Shown piece by piece: positions 42,984 through 53,640 of a DNA stretch of 64,000 nucleotides. This stretch comes from Candidatus Poseidoniales archaeon. Its GTDB lineage: Archaea; Thermoplasmatota; Poseidoniia; Poseidoniales; Poseidoniaceae. The position numbers and the translations under genes are program-made. Position 1 is the first letter of the stretch. Each line of letters opens with the position of its first letter. The notes under the pieces are model-generated. The model saw nothing but the letters and a program-made list of their open reading frames with translations. It was not told the DNA's origin and did no database searches. Where the stretch lies: assembly GCA_038105035.1 (NCBI GenBank), contig JAYOBT010000006.1, forward strand, positions 4,704-68,703. Direction: 5' to 3'.

Positions 42984-44534
42984 TCACTTGATTCGTTGCC
43001 GGCGTTCTGTTTCTGCAGAACCAACTTCACGTACAAGACGTTCACGTAGAGCTTCATGCAACCACATGCCTTGCTCCAACTCAATGAGGAGGCCATAATC
43101 GATCAATCGTTGTGGAGGCGTACCGTCCCAATCCAAACTGTTCGCAAGGGATTTCCAAGGAATCGGTTTTTCCGAAAGGGCGAGCGTTGCTAAGAGTTCT
43201 CGCTCATCGTCTGGCAGAGGTGCTAAGATTTCTTCATCCAAGAACCGCAACCAATCTTCGTGCGTTGGTTTGCCATACAATTCGAGCATTTCGATGGCTA
43301 GCGGATGTCCGCCTGTTCGCTCGTGAACATCGCTCGGGTCAACATCGTTGAGGTCAAGTTCGTCCAACCATTGTGAGGTTTCATCCAAGGATAGACCGGA
43401 AAGAGGCAACTCTTCGACAATGTCTCGAGTGTGAACATCTCTTCGATCGTAGAAGTCCAATGACGTTCGAGAGATGAGAACGAAGCGCAACGGCGTTTTC
43501 TGGGAGATTTGCAGCAATGCTCCAAGGAGATTCTTCGATTCAGATGCAATGTGATGGACGTCATCAAGAACAATCAACCAGTATGGAGGAGGGCCGCCGG
43601 GTGCGATGGAGAAGCGCTCTCGAACCGTATACGCGTCCGTCAAGTATGCAAGCAATCGACGTCGCCACGTATCAACGTCCAATGGAGCACCTGGGCGCAG
43701 AGGAAGCGTCTCAATGAGATTGTATGGGTCGTGTTTTTCATCAATACCGAATCGATGCAAAAGACTGACGGCAAGCCCAACTTCACGGTCCCAAGGTTGG
43801 CAAGGGTACCAACAGATGGACAAATTCGGTTGCTCGTCTTGCCTGCCTGCCAACCATTCTGCGACAAGCGTCGACTTTCCAATTCCTGCAATTCCAGAAA
43901 CAACAGCGAAGGCAGAACGCCCCTCAAACCATTCATCCAAACGCTCGAGTTCATCATCTCGTCCACGCATTTTTCGAGTCTGGGGGGCGCTTGTGTGATA
44001 GGTTGCATGGACGCCAGCGAGCGGCTGGAGGCGCCCTGGAGGAGGAGTTGTGTCTTCATCATCCTGCTTTTTGATAAGACCGAAACGAATGTCGCCCCAT
44101 GTAAGAACACCTTCATGTTGAGCGTGAAGAAGAACTTGCAACAACGACATGTCCGAGGCCAGACGATTGGCAGCATCCTTTGATTCAATTTCGAGAAGTT
44201 GCCCGTCCTTGTCCCGTACCAAGACCTTGGTTTCACCCAATTTATTGGTCCGAAGCTTGGCCATGTCACGTCCGTCCTCGGTCAATTGCCATGTCTTCTG
44301 ACGACGATCATCGTTCTGAATTGAACGGGTATGTTCGCTAACCCAACCTTTGCGAACGAGATCCCGCATCGTACGACTCACGTTGGGTGGATGTTGGGCG
44401 CAGGCTTCCGCAATCCCTGGGCGAGTTAATGCGGCTGTGACGATGAATCGGTCGGCGAGATGGTCATGGTGCAAGAGGTGGAGCAAGACGCGGTCTGAGA
44501 CAGCGACGTTGACTTTTGGAAGCCCCTCGGCCAT
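42984..44534 (-). CDS. wHTH plus STAND/AAA_16-type P-loop NTPase signalling protein
   Basis: N-terminal MarR-like wHTH (RPGIAEACAQHPPNVSRTMRDLVRKGWV). GRDDELERLDEWFEGRSAFAVVSGIAGIGKSTL is Walker A and YWLIVLDDVHHI is Walker B. A helical C-terminal region follows. Confidence 0.7.
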   Translation of the reverse strand: MAEGLPKVNVAVSDRVLLHLLHHDHLADRFIVTAALTRPGIAEACAQHPPNVSRTMRDLVRKGWVSEHTRSIQNDDRRQKTWQLTEDGRDMAKLRTNKLGETKVLVRDKDGQLLEIESKDAANRLASDMSLLQVLLHAQHEGVLTWGDIRFGLIKKQDDEDTTPPPGRLQPLAGVHATYHTSAPQTRKMRGRDDELERLDEWFEGRSAFAVVSGIAGIGKSTLVAEWLAGRQDEQPNLSICWYPCQPWDREVGLAVSLLHRFGIDEKHDPYNLIETLPLRPGAPLDVDTWRRRLLAYLTDAYTVRERFSIAPGGPPPYWLIVLDDVHHIASESKNLLGALLQISQKTPLRFVLISRTSLDFYDRRDVHTRDIVEELPLSGLSLDETSQWLDELDLNDVDPSDVHERTGGHPLAIEMLELYGKPTHEDWLRFLDEEILAPLPDDERELLATLALSEKPIPWKSLANSLDWDGTPPQRLIDYGLLIELEQGMWLHEALRERLVREVGSAETERRQRIK

Positions 44535-44636
44535 GTCCCGCTGTGGAGAATATCACGTTCAAGCGTTGCGATTCCATGATGCCAAATTTAAACACAAAGA
44601 CCACAACCCCTAATAATAGATAAGTGACGCGTTGCC

Positions 44637-48113: not shown

Positions 48114-48167
48114 TTTACGCATGGTTTGTACCGTTGCCCTTTAAATCAATGAGAACTATGCAAAACC

Positions 48168-50747
48168 ATGGGAGAGGGGCGTATGCGTCGTCTTGTTGCA
48201 ACATCCATGGTGATGTTGCTCGTTCTTCTCATCCCAGTAAGTGCTGAAGAAACTGCCACGGTTCGTCTCGAAATCGAGACATTGGATGAGAATTCCAAGC
48301 CTTGGTATGGCGCAGGAGATCGTGTTCTTTTCGCCTCTTCCATCGTCAACGAAGGTGCTGCAACCTCAATCACTGAAGACCCGTCATGTGGCGTCATCAT
48401 GCGTGTGGCCGATGCAGCGGGTACAACCATTCTTGACGAAGGCACAACATGTCGAGGACAAAGCCGTGGTCTTGACATCGGAGCAGGTACAACAGATCTG
48501 GACCAACATTCTTGGGATTTGACCGATCAAGATGGTGAACTGGTTTCTGCAGGACTCTATTCCATCAGCATCGAACTTGCAGGATCTGGACTTTCAGCAA
48601 CATCCGAAGTTATGGTTCAACAAAACGCTGGCATTCCACCAGAGTTGATCTTCTCAACCTCCATCGCACATCGAGAAGATGTGTTGTCCCTTGGTGAGCC
48701 ATTCGTCGTCGCTTACGAACTTCACAACCCAACGTCGGAAGCTATCGACATCAGTGGTCTTGATGCTTGTCAACTTCTGATTTCCTTTGAAGAGCAACAG
48801 CTCGGCCCATCATGCAATGCAGGCACAACGACCATCGATGCCTATGCTGTTCTCGGATTGGGCCACACCATGCACCAAGCGACATCAATCGACGCCCCCA
48901 CGCTAACGATTGAAACGCCTGATGCTCAAGTCATCGGTTCGTTCGAACTCTCTGTACAAGATGACGAAACCCTCTCAACTCCGCTTGATGCCTCGGTCAA
49001 CACACTCTCGACCTCCTTCCTCCAAGGCGAATTGTTTGGAGGTTCCCTTACGCTTGAAAACGATGGAAGCGAGAACGAACTGTTGCGCTTCACCAACACA
49101 TGTCGCGCCAGCTATTGGATTGCAGGTGGCGACGGTGTTGTGTTCGATTCTCTCGATCAAGCCAACTGTCGAGCGGCTGAGCTCGACGTGATCGTGGGTG
49201 CATCCTCGCAAACCACATTCCCTCTTCAGTCCTGGGCTTTTGTCGATGAAACCGGTTGTTCCATGTTGAGCGGTGACTACGTCCTCGTCGCTGAAATACC
49301 CGAATTCGGTTACGCTGCCTCAATGGATGTTGACTACCGTCGCATTCAGTCCACAGATTGTGGGACCGTATCCGAACCTCTCACATCTCTGTCCATCGAT
49401 CTTGATGACAACGATGAAGCATTGTTCGAATTGCAACTCGTTGGAATGGACGAGGAAACCGATATTCGCTGGCTGGAAATCTGCAAGGCATCGCTCCAAT
49501 TGTGGAACCTTGACCTCACTGAGAAGGTCATTGAAAAGAACGTCCTCTGCAACAGTGATGTTCAGGTCGACCAAGCCCTTCGAATCTCCTCAGAGGATGT
49601 TCTTCGATTCGAACTTGAAGAATTGAACACCTTCGAGTACCAAGACGCGGAATATCGAGTTCGAATCGATCTGGCAACGGACCAAGATATGATGCTCGAG
49701 TATGAATTCTCGTGGCCGTTGAACGTCGATGTTGAAGAAGCGGTGATTGTTGAAGAAGACGTCGCAGCAGACGCTCCAATCGTTCTCGTCGATGGTGTTT
49801 GGAGTGGCGTCTTGACACCAGACGGAACCTGCTGGATGCTTGAAAACGATGCAGGCGTCATTCACATGCTCGCAGATGCGACCATGGCTTCTTGGGCACC
49901 AGAGCGTGGATTGACGGGCACCTACCAAGCCCAACAAACAGATGCAAACCAGGCTTGTACACGATTCACCGCTGACAGTTTCACATTTGTCGGAATTGTA
50001 CAGGAAATTCCATTGATTGAAGAATCGCCCGCTGTCGAAGAATCATCCATCGTCGAGAACGAAGTTGTCGAGCAAGAAGCGCTCCCCGCCTGGGCACCAC
50101 AAGCGGTGACTGTACTCACAGTAAGCGCGATTCTCTCCATGCTTGGCTTTGCTGCTTTCAACAACGAAGCGATTCGTATCTCGACCACTCTCACAGGATT
50201 GTGGTTCCTCGGTCTGATCGGTAAAACCTCAGAGACAAGCGATGGGCGATTCCAACGCGGACGACTGCTTGGTTACCTTACAGCAAACCCTGGTTGTCAC
50301 TTCCGTGCTCTCTTGTCTGCTTTGGACATGAGCAACGGACAACTCTCTCATCACCTTCGAGTTCTCGAACAAGAAGAAAGCATCTGGCGACGTAAGGACG
50401 GTCGCTTGGTACGCTACTACCCATTGACCAACACGCTCCATCCATTGCTTGAGGATGATGCACTACCAGTGCCAATTCTCGCTCCTGATCCTCTTTCGCT
50501 TCAAGGCAAAATTCTGGTTTTGCTCGATCATGACAGTCAAATGGGAGACTTCCCTACCCAAGCTGAACTCGCAAAGCGACTCGACAAATCCCAACAACTC
50601 ATCTCCCACCATCTCCGTACCTTGGAGAAATACGGCCTCATCGAAGGACGACGTATGGGCATGCGCAACCGCTACAAACTCACCAAGGAAGCAATGTTCC
50701 TTTTGGAGACCAGCGAAGCATACGTACAGAACGAGATGAACCTCTGA
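48168..50747 (+). CDS. membrane-anchored transcription regulator: ~630-aa extracytoplasmic Cys-paired Ig-like repeats, 2 TM, two C-terminal ArsR-type winged-helix domains
   Basis: Signal/TM MRRLVATSMVMLLVLLIPVSA. TMs are AVTVLTVSAILSMLGFAAF and LTGLWFLGLIG. wHTH 1 is GRLLGYLTANPGCHFRALLSALDMSNGQLSHHLRVLEQEESIWRRKDGRLVRYYPL. wHTH 2 is QGKILVLLDH...FPTQAELAKRLDKSQQLISHHLRTLEKYGLIEGRRMGMRNRYKLT. Confidence 0.75.
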   Translation: MGEGRMRRLVATSMVMLLVLLIPVSAEETATVRLEIETLDENSKPWYGAGDRVLFASSIVNEGAATSITEDPSCGVIMRVADAAGTTILDEGTTCRGQSRGLDIGAGTTDLDQHSWDLTDQDGELVSAGLYSISIELAGSGLSATSEVMVQQNAGIPPELIFSTSIAHREDVLSLGEPFVVAYELHNPTSEAIDISGLDACQLLISFEEQQLGPSCNAGTTTIDAYAVLGLGHTMHQATSIDAPTLTIETPDAQVIGSFELSVQDDETLSTPLDASVNTLSTSFLQGELFGGSLTLENDGSENELLRFTNTCRASYWIAGGDGVVFDSLDQANCRAAELDVIVGASSQTTFPLQSWAFVDETGCSMLSGDYVLVAEIPEFGYAASMDVDYRRIQSTDCGTVSEPLTSLSIDLDDNDEALFELQLVGMDEETDIRWLEICKASLQLWNLDLTEKVIEKNVLCNSDVQVDQALRISSEDVLRFELEELNTFEYQDAEYRVRIDLATDQDMMLEYEFSWPLNVDVEEAVIVEEDVAADAPIVLVDGVWSGVLTPDGTCWMLENDAGVIHMLADATMASWAPERGLTGTYQAQQTDANQACTRFTADSFTFVGIVQEIPLIEESPAVEESSIVENEVVEQEALPAWAPQAVTVLTVSAILSMLGFAAFNNEAIRISTTLTGLWFLGLIGKTSETSDGRFQRGRLLGYLTANPGCHFRALLSALDMSNGQLSHHLRVLEQEESIWRRKDGRLVRYYPLTNTLHPLLEDDALPVPILAPDPLSLQGKILVLLDHDSQMGDFPTQAELAKRLDKSQQLISHHLRTLEKYGLIEGRRMGMRNRYKLTKEAMFLLETSEAYVQNEMNL

Positions 50748-50826
50748 ATTCGATTCGCTGAGGTGGATTGAAGAAGGATAGCATGGAGGCGTGTTTAGCG
50801 TAGGATGTGTCGACGTGTCGGATGAG

Positions 50827-53640
50827 ATGAAGACGACGGATGAAGTTGCATGGCAACAAGCATGGACCGATGCTAACGTCTTCGGTTCAAGTGATGATGC
50901 ATCCAAACCGAAATTCTACTGTTTGGAAATGTATCCGTATCCTTCCGGAAAAATGCACATGGGACACGTTCGAAACTATTCGATTGGCGATGCTGTTGCC
51001 CGTTACAAGCGGATGAAAGGTTTCAACGTCCTTTACCCAATGGGATTTGATTCGTTTGGAATGCCTGCAGAAAATGCTGCCATAGCTGAAGGTGGGCATC
51101 CTCATGACATCACCGAGAAGAACATGGCCTCCATTACGGAACAGATCAAGCGCATGGGATTCTCGTACGACTGGAGTCGATTGGTCAAGAGTCACGATCC
51201 GAATTATTACAAGTGGAACCAATTGTTCTTCACCCGCTTTTTCAATTCAGGACTCGCCTATCGTGAGTTTGCTCCAGTCAATTGGTGCGAATCCTGTTCA
51301 ACGGTCCTTGCCAACGAACAAGTCAAAGCGGGCCGATGCTGGCGATGCAACGGTCCTGTACGACAAAAGGACATGAGCCAATGGTTCATTGACATCACCA
51401 AGTACGCTCAACAATTGCTCGATGGACTCGATACCATCGAGTTTCCAGAAAGTGTTCGGTTGATGCAAGAGGACTGGCTTGGCCGTTCCGAAGGAGCAGA
51501 AATCGAATTCGGTATTGAAGGGAGTGAGGAAACCATCCGCGTTTTCACAACCCGGCCTGACACCCTGTTTGGCGTCACCTTCGTCACGCTCGCACCGGAA
51601 CACCCCCTTGCAGAACAACTGGTCAAAGGGACCGAGTATGAGGCGGGCTGGCAAGCCATGCACGATGTGTATGCCAACATGAGCGAGTTCGATCGAATCA
51701 AGAATCTCAACAAGAAGGAAGGTGTTTCTCTCGGGCGCTTTGCTATCCACCCGCTTACTGGTGAGAAAATTCCAATCTGGGCAGGTAACTTTGTTCTCGC
51801 TACCTACGGAACGGGAGCTGTCATGGCTGTTCCTGGTCATGATGAACGCGATTTTGACTTTGCCAAAACATACGATTTGCCAATCAAGCGTGTGCTCATC
51901 GAAAACGAGAACGATGATGCTGATGAAGAACTTGAATCAGCCTATACGGAAGATGGATACATGGTTCATTCAGGAATGGATGGATTCGATGGCCGCTTCG
52001 GAGATGCTGCGCGTACGGCTGTTATCGATGCCCTCGAAACCGCTGGAAAGGGCGATCGTCGAGTCAATTGGAAGATTCGCCCTTGGCTCATCAGTCGCCA
52101 GCGTTACTGGGGCACACCGATTCCAATCATCCACTGTGAGGACTGTGGAGCCGTTCCTGTTCCTGAAGATCAACTGCCAGTTGAACTTCCACGCGACGTT
52201 GTCTTCGATGGGAAAGGAAATCCATTGGAAACATCAGAATCATTCCTTAACGTAGATTGCCCCAAGTGCGGTAAGCCTGCACGAAGAGAAACCGATACGA
52301 TGGATACGTTTGTTGATTCATCGTGGTACTTCTTGCGCTATACCGATGCCAACAACCTCGAACAATGGTACGATGCAGACATCGCTGATTATTGGATGAA
52401 CGTTGATTTCTATTGTGGGGGAATCGAACATGCACAAATGCACCTGATTTACGCCCGTTTCTACACCAAGGCGCTTCGCGATCTTGGCTTCCATAGTATT
52501 GATGAACCATTCAACGAATTGCTCTGTCAAGGCATGGTCAACAAGAGCGCCCCTTTCTGTGAAACCTGTTCCGTGACCCTCTCGGTCGATCATGCTGGCT
52601 CACCATGTCCGCATTGCAATTCACCACTCGGTGAACGCTCTGCAAAAATGAGCAAATCGCTCGGTAACACGGTTTCTCCTGAACAGATGATCGAACAATT
52701 CGGGGCCGATACGGTTCGCTTGTTCATTCTCTTTGCTGCAAATCCGACCGCTGGAATGGACTGGTCCGATTCCGCTGTTGAAGCCAATCATCGAGTGATG
52801 CAACAACTGCAAACGATGCCTGACCAACTCCTTGGATGGAACAAGCCTGCCCATTCCATCGATGATTGGATGATGGCTCGACTCCGACAACGCCTCCAAC
52901 AATGGTCCGATGCGATGGACCGATACGACTTGCGTCGAGCTGTCGAATGCTCCCACTATGACATGGTCAAAGACATCAACTGGTACGTACGTCGCGGAGG
53001 AGGCAATGCTGAAATCGGCCGAACATTGCTTCACTCATGGACCCACATGATCGGCATCGCCACACCGCATCTTGCAGAAGATTGGTGGGCGCAACTTGGT
53101 GGAGAGGGACTCCTCGCTACGCATGTCATGGACGACATTCAGGCCGTCAGCGAAGAAGATCAGGCCGTCCTCGATGGAGAAGCATTGATTCGAGATCTCC
53201 TCGAACAAGCACGAAAAGTTCGCAGTGTTGCTGAGCGACACATCGATGGGGAAGCAACATCGCTCACCATCGTCACCTCCGCACCATGGAGAAACACCAT
53301 GGCAGAAATGGCATTAACACATCTTTCCGAAGGAAACAACGTCAAGACCTTCATGGGCATTTTGACCCAATCCGAACTCGCTCAAGGTGAAACACGGGGT
53401 GAACGACTCGGATTCTGGAACAAGCGCATGCTACCTCAAGTGTTCAAGTGGGACGATGAAAAGAAGCGAATTCTTCTTTCAACACTTGATGAAACACAGG
53501 TCTATGCTAATGCTTCCAACTTCATCGCAGAAGAACTCGGTCTTGCATCGGTACGCATCGTCCGTGGTGAAGGCGAAGAGGATGAAACAGGGAAAGCAGG
53601 CGTTGCGATGCCACTTTCACCCGCATTCATCTATGCTTGA
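50827..53640 (+). CDS. leuS: leucyl-tRNA synthetase
   Basis: The first in-frame ATG is at 50827; the track start at 50791 is GTG. Contains [15 protein letters not shown] (HIGH), TRPDT, [19 protein letters not shown] (CP1 editing) and KMSKS. Confidence 0.9.
   Translation: [937 protein letters not shown]

Follow-up and report, generated by a model that had tools for sequence, protein, structure and literature searches.

A putative membrane-tethered transcription regulator beside a giant surface-protein gene in Poseidoniales, and its output cassette in Thermoplasmatota

Among the archaea of the surface ocean, the uncultured Poseidoniales (Marine Group II) are some of the most abundant, and to our knowledge almost nothing is known of how they sense their surroundings. 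A gene in a 64,000-nucleotide stretch of DNA from Candidatus Poseidoniales archaeon (assembly GCA_038105035.1, contig JAYOBT010000006.1, positions 4,704 to 68,703; the window hereafter) raises the question of whether a single protein could connect the cell surface with transcription in these organisms. A first inspection made from the letters alone (the sequence-only reading) had described the product of this gene as a one-component regulator with a large Cys-paired ectodomain, two transmembrane (TM) helices and two winged helix-turn-helix (wHTH) domains of ArsR type, a combination that it considered rare in archaea. The analysis described here keeps the Cys-paired ectodomain, the membrane anchor and the two cytoplasmic wHTHs, and gives up the second TM helix and the rarity. 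The protein, referred to as the regulator, is on balance probably a transmembrane one-component transcription regulator (TTR class), its DNA binding being deduced from homology.

The first step of the question is whether part of the regulator reaches the cell surface. A hydrophobicity scan finds at its N-terminus a positive start (MGEGRMRR), a hydrophobic core at residues 8-26 and then VSA followed by EE, and most members of the superfamily have an equivalent N-terminal hydrophobic segment; in silico, this signal peptide is shown to export ~615 residues of a type-I single-pass protein. The ectodomain (residues ~28-642, for which ~630 residues had been estimated before) is strongly acidic, with 111 Asp/Glu against 22 Lys/Arg, and holds 12 Cys residues that form six sequential pairs (74/95, 201/216, 312/334, 364/398, 439/461 and 555/597), all of them invariant or at least 90% conserved across 43 orthologues in which ectodomain identity goes down to 15%. 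An AlphaFold2 (AF2) model built on the alignment of these 43 sequences is confident and all-beta (predicted local distance difference test, pLDDT, 86.6; predicted template modelling score, pTM, 0.71). Modules M1-M4 are mutually homologous, with probabilities of 82-99% in pairwise profile-profile comparison (hhalign), and each carries a conserved Cys pair, an additional pair (364/398) lying at the M3-M4 border. The BsuPI model PF12690 is matched by 27 of the 43 orthologues (best E 7e-13) and FlgD_ig by 9; the window protein itself gives a sub-threshold FlgD_ig match, and the PF12690 matches come from its orthologues. The membrane-proximal module M5 shows no similarity to M1-M4 in profile-profile comparison; it has its counterpart in short family members of 310-355 aa, whose whole ectodomain (~90 aa) is homologous to it (hhalign probability 91.4%, E 9e-7). 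In distant orthologues, M5 is one of the better conserved parts of the ectodomain together with M1 and M3, the identities being 27.7% for M1, 26% for M5, 24.3% for M3 and 15-18% for M2 and M4. The several ~110-aa beta-modules of the sequence-only reading, each with a Cys pair, are confirmed as beta-modular and Cys-paired, but the five modules are not equal, M5 being unrelated to the others. A Foldseek search of the ectodomain against the PDB returned strings of macroglobulin (MG)/immunoglobulin (Ig)-like domains with probability 1.0, a template modelling score of 0.15-0.19 and 9-12% identity, including the beta chains of complement C5, C3 and C4, A2ML1, alpha-2-macroglobulin, CD109, TEP1 and LILRB3.

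The second step concerns the part of the protein that would act on DNA. In wH1, PF24266 covers residues 696-753 with 51.6 bits against a cutoff of 31, and in wH2 (~780-845) HTH_5 (PF01022) reaches 40.1 bits against a cutoff of 22, with HTH_20, HTH_24 and MarR_2 also above their Pfam cutoffs and the NCBIfam ArsR/SmtB model NF033788 at 63.4 bits against 55; the two wHTHs with an ArsR signature are thus borne out by curated models. Across the superfamily, the recognition helices keep the motifs GN.Q..HHL and SQQL.S.HL, and an LP.P motif in the inter-domain linker is conserved family-wide. An AF2 model of residues 630-859, built on a 62-sequence alignment (pLDDT 90.7) and used for secondary structure only, places a lower-confidence hinge between the juxtamembrane helix (helix 2) and wH1, followed by two helix-helix-helix-wing units. 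Taken singly, these domains match in Foldseek the ArsR/MarR repressors CzrA, SmtB, CadC and MepR, with a root mean square deviation (rmsd) of 2-3.5 Å over ~80 residues, and by sequence wH1 is closest among solved chains to 5DUK (a putative DNA-binding protein) and wH2 to DNA-binding domains of LexA or of the ArsR family. Moreover, against four increasingly distant genomes the cytoplasmic module is 96, 85, 68 and 56% identical and the neighbouring leucyl-tRNA synthetase (LeuRS) 94, 84, 67 and 53%, while the corresponding values are 46, 46, 28 and 22% for the ectodomain and 74, 70, 53 and 42% for the giant surface protein encoded upstream. On these alignments, the cytoplasmic module is as conserved as LeuRS, and the ectodomain evolves much faster.

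Several observations weigh against a regulator that senses a signal outside and binds DNA inside. In the model, the ectodomain resembles a generic Ig/MG-like rod, with no recognisable small-molecule sensor fold, and the linker between membrane and wH1 is very short (~3 residues past helix 2), which would limit access to DNA. In addition, the motif TGYACCGYTKnCCTTTMAA, taken from the region just upstream of the gene, stands alone in the genome, with no recurrence above the rate of the controls, and its upstream half occurs in the window as often as expected by chance; likewise, no conserved sub-motif is common to the promoter of the regulator and the divergent promoter between the upstream giant and a STAND ATPase gene, and neither the genome motif search nor this promoter comparison yielded a shared operator, target or regulon. 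Finally, the Foldseek E values for TFIIIC, ESCRT-II, RPC62 and ScpB (4e-5 to 1e-3) are comparable to those for ArsR/MarR proteins. These four tandem-winged-helix scaffolds are the top matches of the whole module and would fit a non-transcriptional role, in which the tandem winged helices are an adaptor that binds other proteins or, non-specifically, DNA and couples the surface rod to the nucleoid or to a partner in the cytoplasm. We hold this role to be unlikely. The LeuRS-like conservation of the tail would fit a conserved macromolecular partner, and both the near-universal, single-copy presence of the gene and the failure of the searches to find a regulon motif are compatible with it; nevertheless, the superpositions on the scaffolds have template modelling scores of ~0.24 and an rmsd of 13-21 Å, in the profile searches both domains score above the curated cutoffs of DNA-binding wHTH families, and the ArsR recognition-helix signature is conserved family-wide.

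If the regulator does act on transcription, the state of its ectodomain, be it ligand or partner binding or oligomerisation, possibly with neighbouring surface proteins, would be relayed by the near-invariant M5-TM-juxtamembrane segment, and the transmitted change would alter DNA binding by the tandem wHTH pair at the membrane, with helix 667-687 staying at or in the inner leaflet and the wHTHs ~3 residues beyond. The same parts could serve a release mechanism like that of Notch or SREBP, in which an event in the ectodomain leads to regulated intramembrane proteolysis in or near TM1 and frees a soluble tandem-wHTH fragment. The type-I single-pass layout with the effector at the cytoplasmic end is suited to such a mechanism, TM1 and the NNE-x-x-R segment are near-invariant, which is unusual for a passive anchor, and the very short linker to wH1 would hinder DNA binding as long as the protein is tethered. 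The two M50 site-2 proteases and the rhomboid encoded in the genome were considered as further support and rejected, since M50 and rhomboid genes occur in all 14 control genomes and carry no specific information. No protease gene lies in the conserved gene block, and characterised prokaryotic TTRs generally act while bound to the membrane (PMC10269533), so that proteolytic release seems quite improbable.

A regulator that works at the membrane needs its wHTHs on the inner side. The sole robust TM segment lies at residues 646-664 (Kyte-Doolittle hydropathy, KD, 2.09; approximate Hessa sum ~0), and directly after TM1 stands Glu667, a position at which Glu is kept in at least 90% of 62 diverse family members. 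The second TM helix of the sequence-only reading did not survive: the uncharged core of helix 2 (671-685, KD 1.47) has 15 residues, too few to span, and in many members the equivalent segment is down to 10-12 uncharged residues, while in members P0165 and P0170 it is hydrophilic. The usual layout of the superfamily is a signal peptide, an ectodomain, one hydrophobic segment and the wHTH pair, and many homologues have exactly one hydrophobic segment between signal peptide and HTH1. Moreover, the cytoplasmic tail has 22 Asp/Glu against 23 Lys/Arg, far from the acidity of the ectodomain. Two true spans after a signal peptide would place the HTHs outside, which is incompatible with the homologues and with this charge distribution and contradicts the earlier topology itself; the regulator is read, from these sequence features, as crossing the membrane once, with helix 2 as a juxtamembrane or re-entrant element and the wHTHs in the cytoplasm, where the family-wide comparison also puts them. 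A point against this single span is that helix 2 is hydrophobic and not amphipathic (hydrophobic moment, muH, 0.10), and AF2 gives two consecutive helices of 23 and 21 residues (643-665 and 667-687) with a one-residue break, in a model by which kink and hairpin are not distinguished. A helical hairpin is nonetheless unlikely in this subfamily, and it is very hard to credit that both helices span the membrane and leave the wHTHs extracellular, given the short core of helix 2, the members that keep signal peptide and one TM with a reduced or hydrophilic equivalent, the basic residues after helix 2 (KTSETSDGRFQRGR), a tail that is neither extremely acidic nor Cys-paired like the exported part, and the lack of a plausible role for an extracellular DNA-binding wHTH.

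The 859-aa reading frame is real and ancient and had been correctly located: it translates without interruption, and a word-indexed search found 159 homologues of its product, with 55-97% identity among the 120 matches listed; those from NCBI are labelled 'ArsR family transcriptional regulator [Candidatus Poseidoniaceae/Poseidoniales archaeon]'. That it might be an assembly or annotation artefact joining a surface-protein gene to a separate ArsR gene, a concern of the sequence-only reading, is effectively refuted, because full-length homologues of 854-861 aa recur on more than 100 independent contigs from five sources (ENA, JGI, NCBI, Logan and Tara assemblies) and the matches found in 95 of the 151 genomes of the order have no internal stops, except for one match with a single TGA. 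Relatives are encoded at 325 loci in species-representative genomes, the best 80 of these 325 being all from Poseidoniales, and the original MG-II assembly CM001443.1 is among the genomes that have one. With the ectodomain alone as query, 74 of the 75 genomes of the window's family give a match, mostly one each (the few with two matches are partly explained by a split across contigs), and in the sister family the regulator is present in larger-genome genera and undetected in streamlined ones. The regulator is thus a near-universal single-copy core gene of the main Poseidoniales family.

Table 1. Features of the regulator gene, its product and its surroundings. Positions are those of the window, except for the last row.
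Feature	Residues and motifs	Position	Strand	Basis
Regulator gene	859 aa	48168-50747	+	859-aa ORF (open reading frame), no stops
Upstream element	ACGCATGGTTTGTACCGTTGCCC; TATA-like TTTAAAT (48140-48146)	48117..48146	+	sequence, conservation across genera
Signal peptide	1-26; MGEGRMRRLVATSMVMLLVLLIPVSA, followed by EE	48168..48245	+	hydrophobicity scan, conserved in orthologues
M1-M4, putative BsuPI-type/FlgD-Ig-like beta-sandwich repeats	M1 29-152; M2 158-262; M3 270-395; M4 402-518	48252..49721	+	AF2, hhalign, PF12690, Foldseek
M5, membrane-proximal module	536-616; GxWxxxxxDGTCW ... C597	49773..50015	+	hhalign
Acidic stalk	617-642; ends in conserved P-x-W-A-P motif	50016..50093	+	pLDDT <50, alignment
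TM1	643-665	50094..50162	+	Kyte-Doolittle, AF2 helix, near-invariant in orthologues
Helix 2	667-687; uncharged hydrophobic core 671-685	50166..50228	+	KD, muH, AF2
wH1, PF24266 HTH_HVO_0163_N type	691-752; recognition helix NGQLSHHLRVLE	50238..50423	+	Pfam, AF2 H-H-H-beta-beta
Linker, Pro-rich	753-777; ...LPVPILAPDPLSLQ...	50424..50498	+	alignments, AF2 coil
wH2 and two C-terminal helices, ArsR/SmtB-like	778-856; recognition helix SQQLISHHLRTLE	50499..50735	+	Pfam, NCBIfam, Foldseek
Upstream giant, WD40-propeller/TSP3 (thrombospondin type-3) surface protein	1158 aa	44637..48113	+	Pfam, synteny, co-occurrence
wHTH + AAA_16 STAND ATPase, divergent		42984..44534	-	Pfam, conserved position
leuS		50791-53640	+	downstream neighbour
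Minimal paralogue	222 aa	L002 1399-2067	-	another contig of the same genome

The regulator is one of many proteins that end in the same way. Residues 640-859, used as query in an exhaustive search, retrieve 2267 representative proteins (351 at E <= 1e-10), in which the cassette of TM segment and tandem wHTH is always C-terminal, on proteins of ~200-1460 aa, and joined to many different ectodomains. It occurs in 217 of 301 Thermoplasmatota genomes (107 of 136 genera), and the larger genomes carry 8-11 copies or more; the named members are from Poseidoniales and Methanomassiliicoccales, and the PF24266 type of wHTH is also found in M. jannaschii, H. volcanii and M. acetivorans. Judging from these comparisons, TM, juxtamembrane helix and two wHTHs would form a mobile, conserved output module in Thermoplasmatota. 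The genome under study encodes one more member, a protein of 222 aa with 27% identity that consists only of a Gly/Ala-rich TM region and two wHTHs; its gene adjoins that of a 370-aa protein with an ArsR-like 'ALNHHLARL' helix. In members P0187, P0197 and L102 9408-10520 (-), which are 370-407 aa long, the ectodomain consists of thrombospondin type-3 Ca-binding repeats, and both giant neighbours of the regulator in the window are built from this repeat too. The idea that streamlined Thalassarchaeaceae carry the regulator's own module on a short ectodomain was rejected; the matches are paralogous subfamilies, as judged from the search profile, which held P0165- and P0187-type sequences (42% and 32% identity to the module).

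The place of the gene raises the further question of whether the regulator is tied to the surface proteins encoded around it. As the sequence-only reading had reported, it directly follows the giant gene on the same strand; exactly 54 nt separate the end of the giant gene (48113) from the ATG of the regulator. A conserved block comprises genes for a thioredoxin, the STAND ATPase (-), the giant (+), the regulator (+), leuS (+), a TPD-domain protein, a GHMP kinase and an RNA polymerase subunit; it is kept in full where the regulator is 55-60% identical, and its core is kept where the ectodomain is 22-28% identical and the outer flanks differ. The STAND ATPase, at 93, 83, 65 and 56% identity in the same four increasingly distant genomes, is nearly LeuRS-like in its conservation, and its position is kept across the order. 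Among the 151 genomes of the order, giant and regulator are both present in 92, the regulator alone in 3, the giant alone in 4 and neither in 52, as compiled by hand from two genome searches. However, a single deletion of adjacent genes could explain this co-occurrence, and synteny alone is no proof of a functional link because housekeeping genes (leuS and RNA-polymerase/ribosomal genes) belong to the block. Moreover, in one distant lineage a gene with a metallo-beta-lactamase fold (L007 7080-7934, -) lies on the opposite strand between giant and regulator, so co-transcription of the two cannot be general. Conservation of the pair thus stands as far as adjacency and co-occurrence are concerned, but it is inseparable from inherited gene order, and both the interruption in L007 and a promoter-like element of the regulator's own speak against it as a unit. 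A link to defence systems was also considered and rejected, as the PADLOC matches are only to the generic wHTH of Csa3/CasR, and the STAND ATPase and the giant have no matches. As for the other neighbours in the window, LeuRS matches the bacterial-type model TIGR00396 over residues 18-801 (902 bits), and archaeal-type models fit the ~330 residues at its end (618-947); a convergent gene for a 935-aa TSP3 protein (-), the second giant, overlaps the end of leuS by 10 nt (53631-53640) and is missing at the equivalent place in L007.

A comparison across the phylum extends this view beyond the block. Around 19 diverse cassette loci, large secreted or anchored proteins are encoded by 12 of 38 adjacent genes against 16 of 209 non-adjacent ones (odds ratio 5.6, one-sided Fisher p 1.7e-4), which is suggestive of family members lying next to large surface-protein genes more often than expected. 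The gene calls at these loci are crude, with some starts and one family gene miscalled, and loci were assigned by coordinate; what counts against the enrichment is that two of the 12 adjacent 'surface' genes are false by Pfam (UvrA and AFOR) and that the sample is small and includes orthologous loci. The remaining adjacent genes encode, according to Pfam, PKD, PF09826 beta-propeller (twice), Big_9/cadherin-like, DUF6345, CARDB with FG-GAP propeller, and CarboxypepD_reg/Big_1 proteins; the gene of P0165 is followed by one for a 989-aa PKD protein, and that of P0234 lies among genes for NosD/beta-helix and PPC proteins. In the Poseidoniales loci L100, L103, L104, L105 and L096, a member of 281-351 aa is immediately followed on the same strand by a secreted protein of 799-994 aa, which is a PKD protein at two of the loci (L100, L096) and a PF09826 beta-propeller at two others (L103, L105); such pairs look like conserved two-gene units.

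The TATA-like box of the regulator lies 22-28 nt before its ATG, within a block of ~30-35 nt (ACRCAYnnnwTGYACCGYTKnCCTTTMAA) that is conserved in several genera, including one whose LeuRS is 67% identical. In archaea, the TATA box precedes the start site by ~26 nt, and leaderless mRNAs are frequent; from this spacing we infer that the regulator has its own promoter and a leaderless or near-leaderless mRNA. The giant gene has a conserved promoter-like element of its own (ACCACAAnnCCTAATAA) at ~25-30 nt upstream of its ATG (44584-44625), and the STAND ATPase gene has a conserved element (CACGTTCAAGCGTTCC) at ~20 nt from its start codon. The STAND ATPase may be a cytoplasmic regulator of the giant gene. 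A 'CC' followed by a T/A-rich hexamer recurs at the promoters of regulator and giant, and may represent the usual form of BRE (transcription factor B recognition element) and TATA box in these archaea. A shared operator with the STAND/giant promoter, proposed from a CGTTGC repeat, was rejected, as the repeat is not conserved in orthologous loci.

These observations allow a wider and more speculative proposal, which we regard as doubtful, namely that M5, TM, juxtamembrane helix and wHTHs define a receptor superfamily of Thermoplasmatota whose members are each wired to the neighbouring surface giant and report its state (adhesion, Ca-dependent assembly or damage) to the chromosome, possibly via proteolytic release. 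The partners would be the propeller/TSP3 giant in the window and PKD, PF09826-propeller or CARDB/FG-GAP proteins elsewhere, and these archaea, which are largely without two-component systems, would have a dedicated route of outside-in signalling. Even apart from such partners, tandem wHTHs that bind DNA would make the regulator a direct, one-protein link from cell surface to transcription, and the cassette, joined to dozens of ectodomains, would represent a major signalling family of Thermoplasmatota that has gone unstudied until now.

Compared with known systems, the regulator combines familiar parts in an unfamiliar order. Its ectodomain resembles macroglobulin-domain proteins, such as complement C3 and C5 and alpha-2-macroglobulin, in being a series of beta-sandwiches, a resemblance at the level of a generic fold and not of function (as the low template modelling scores and identities indicate); alpha-2-macroglobulin and C3 differ in having a thioester domain and a bait region, and no A2M or TED match to Pfam is found in the regulator. 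The likeness to BsuPI, for its part, runs through the orthologues that match its model. With the ArsR/SmtB repressors (CzrA, SmtB and CadC of pI258), wH2 shares the profile matches and the superposition described above, and both wHTHs have their S-HHL--L recognition-helix signature. However, ArsR/SmtB proteins are small soluble homodimers of ~100-120 aa (alpha-1/alpha-5 interface) with metal or metalloid sites, whereas the regulator is an 859-aa, membrane-tethered protein with tandem wHTHs; neither an alpha-3N CXC motif nor an alpha-5 D/H/E cluster is conserved in it, wH2 has no Cys, and the single cytoplasmic Cys (Cys710, in NPGCH) is conserved within Poseidoniales only and replaced by I, A, L or V elsewhere.

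Among membrane-bound regulators, ToxR and CadC have an extracytoplasmic domain with functionally important disulfides. Together with TcpP, they resemble the regulator in their single TM and extracytoplasmic domain, and in the current view their wHTH binds DNA at the membrane; nevertheless, their orientation is the opposite, with an N-terminal cytoplasmic OmpR-type wHTH, a C-terminal periplasmic domain and no signal peptide, and they have one wHTH where the regulator has two and no Trans_reg_C match in Pfam. ArnR has an N-terminal HTH, C-terminal TM helices and no large ectodomain. Like the regulator as proposed here, ArnR and ArnR1 of Sulfolobus acidocaldarius are archaeal membrane-anchored transcription regulators, in their case of the archaellum (PMC10269533). 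A literature search found no paper on the family of the regulator. The closest frame is the TTR class, which is defined operationally by a TM region and a DNA-binding domain in one chain, both present in the regulator, and has been found in 367 of 404 archaeal species, at about four per genome and with 56% of its members single-pass like the regulator (Demey et al. 2023, PMC10269533); this abundance, together with the spread of the cassette within Thermoplasmatota, does away with the supposed rarity of such proteins in archaea. No characterised TTR has the layout of the regulator, which stands apart by its type-I orientation, its C-terminal tandem ArsR-like wHTHs, its near-invariant juxtamembrane helix and its rod of Ig-like repeats. 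The regulator thus probably extends a recognised class of transmembrane transcription regulators and opens no new theme.

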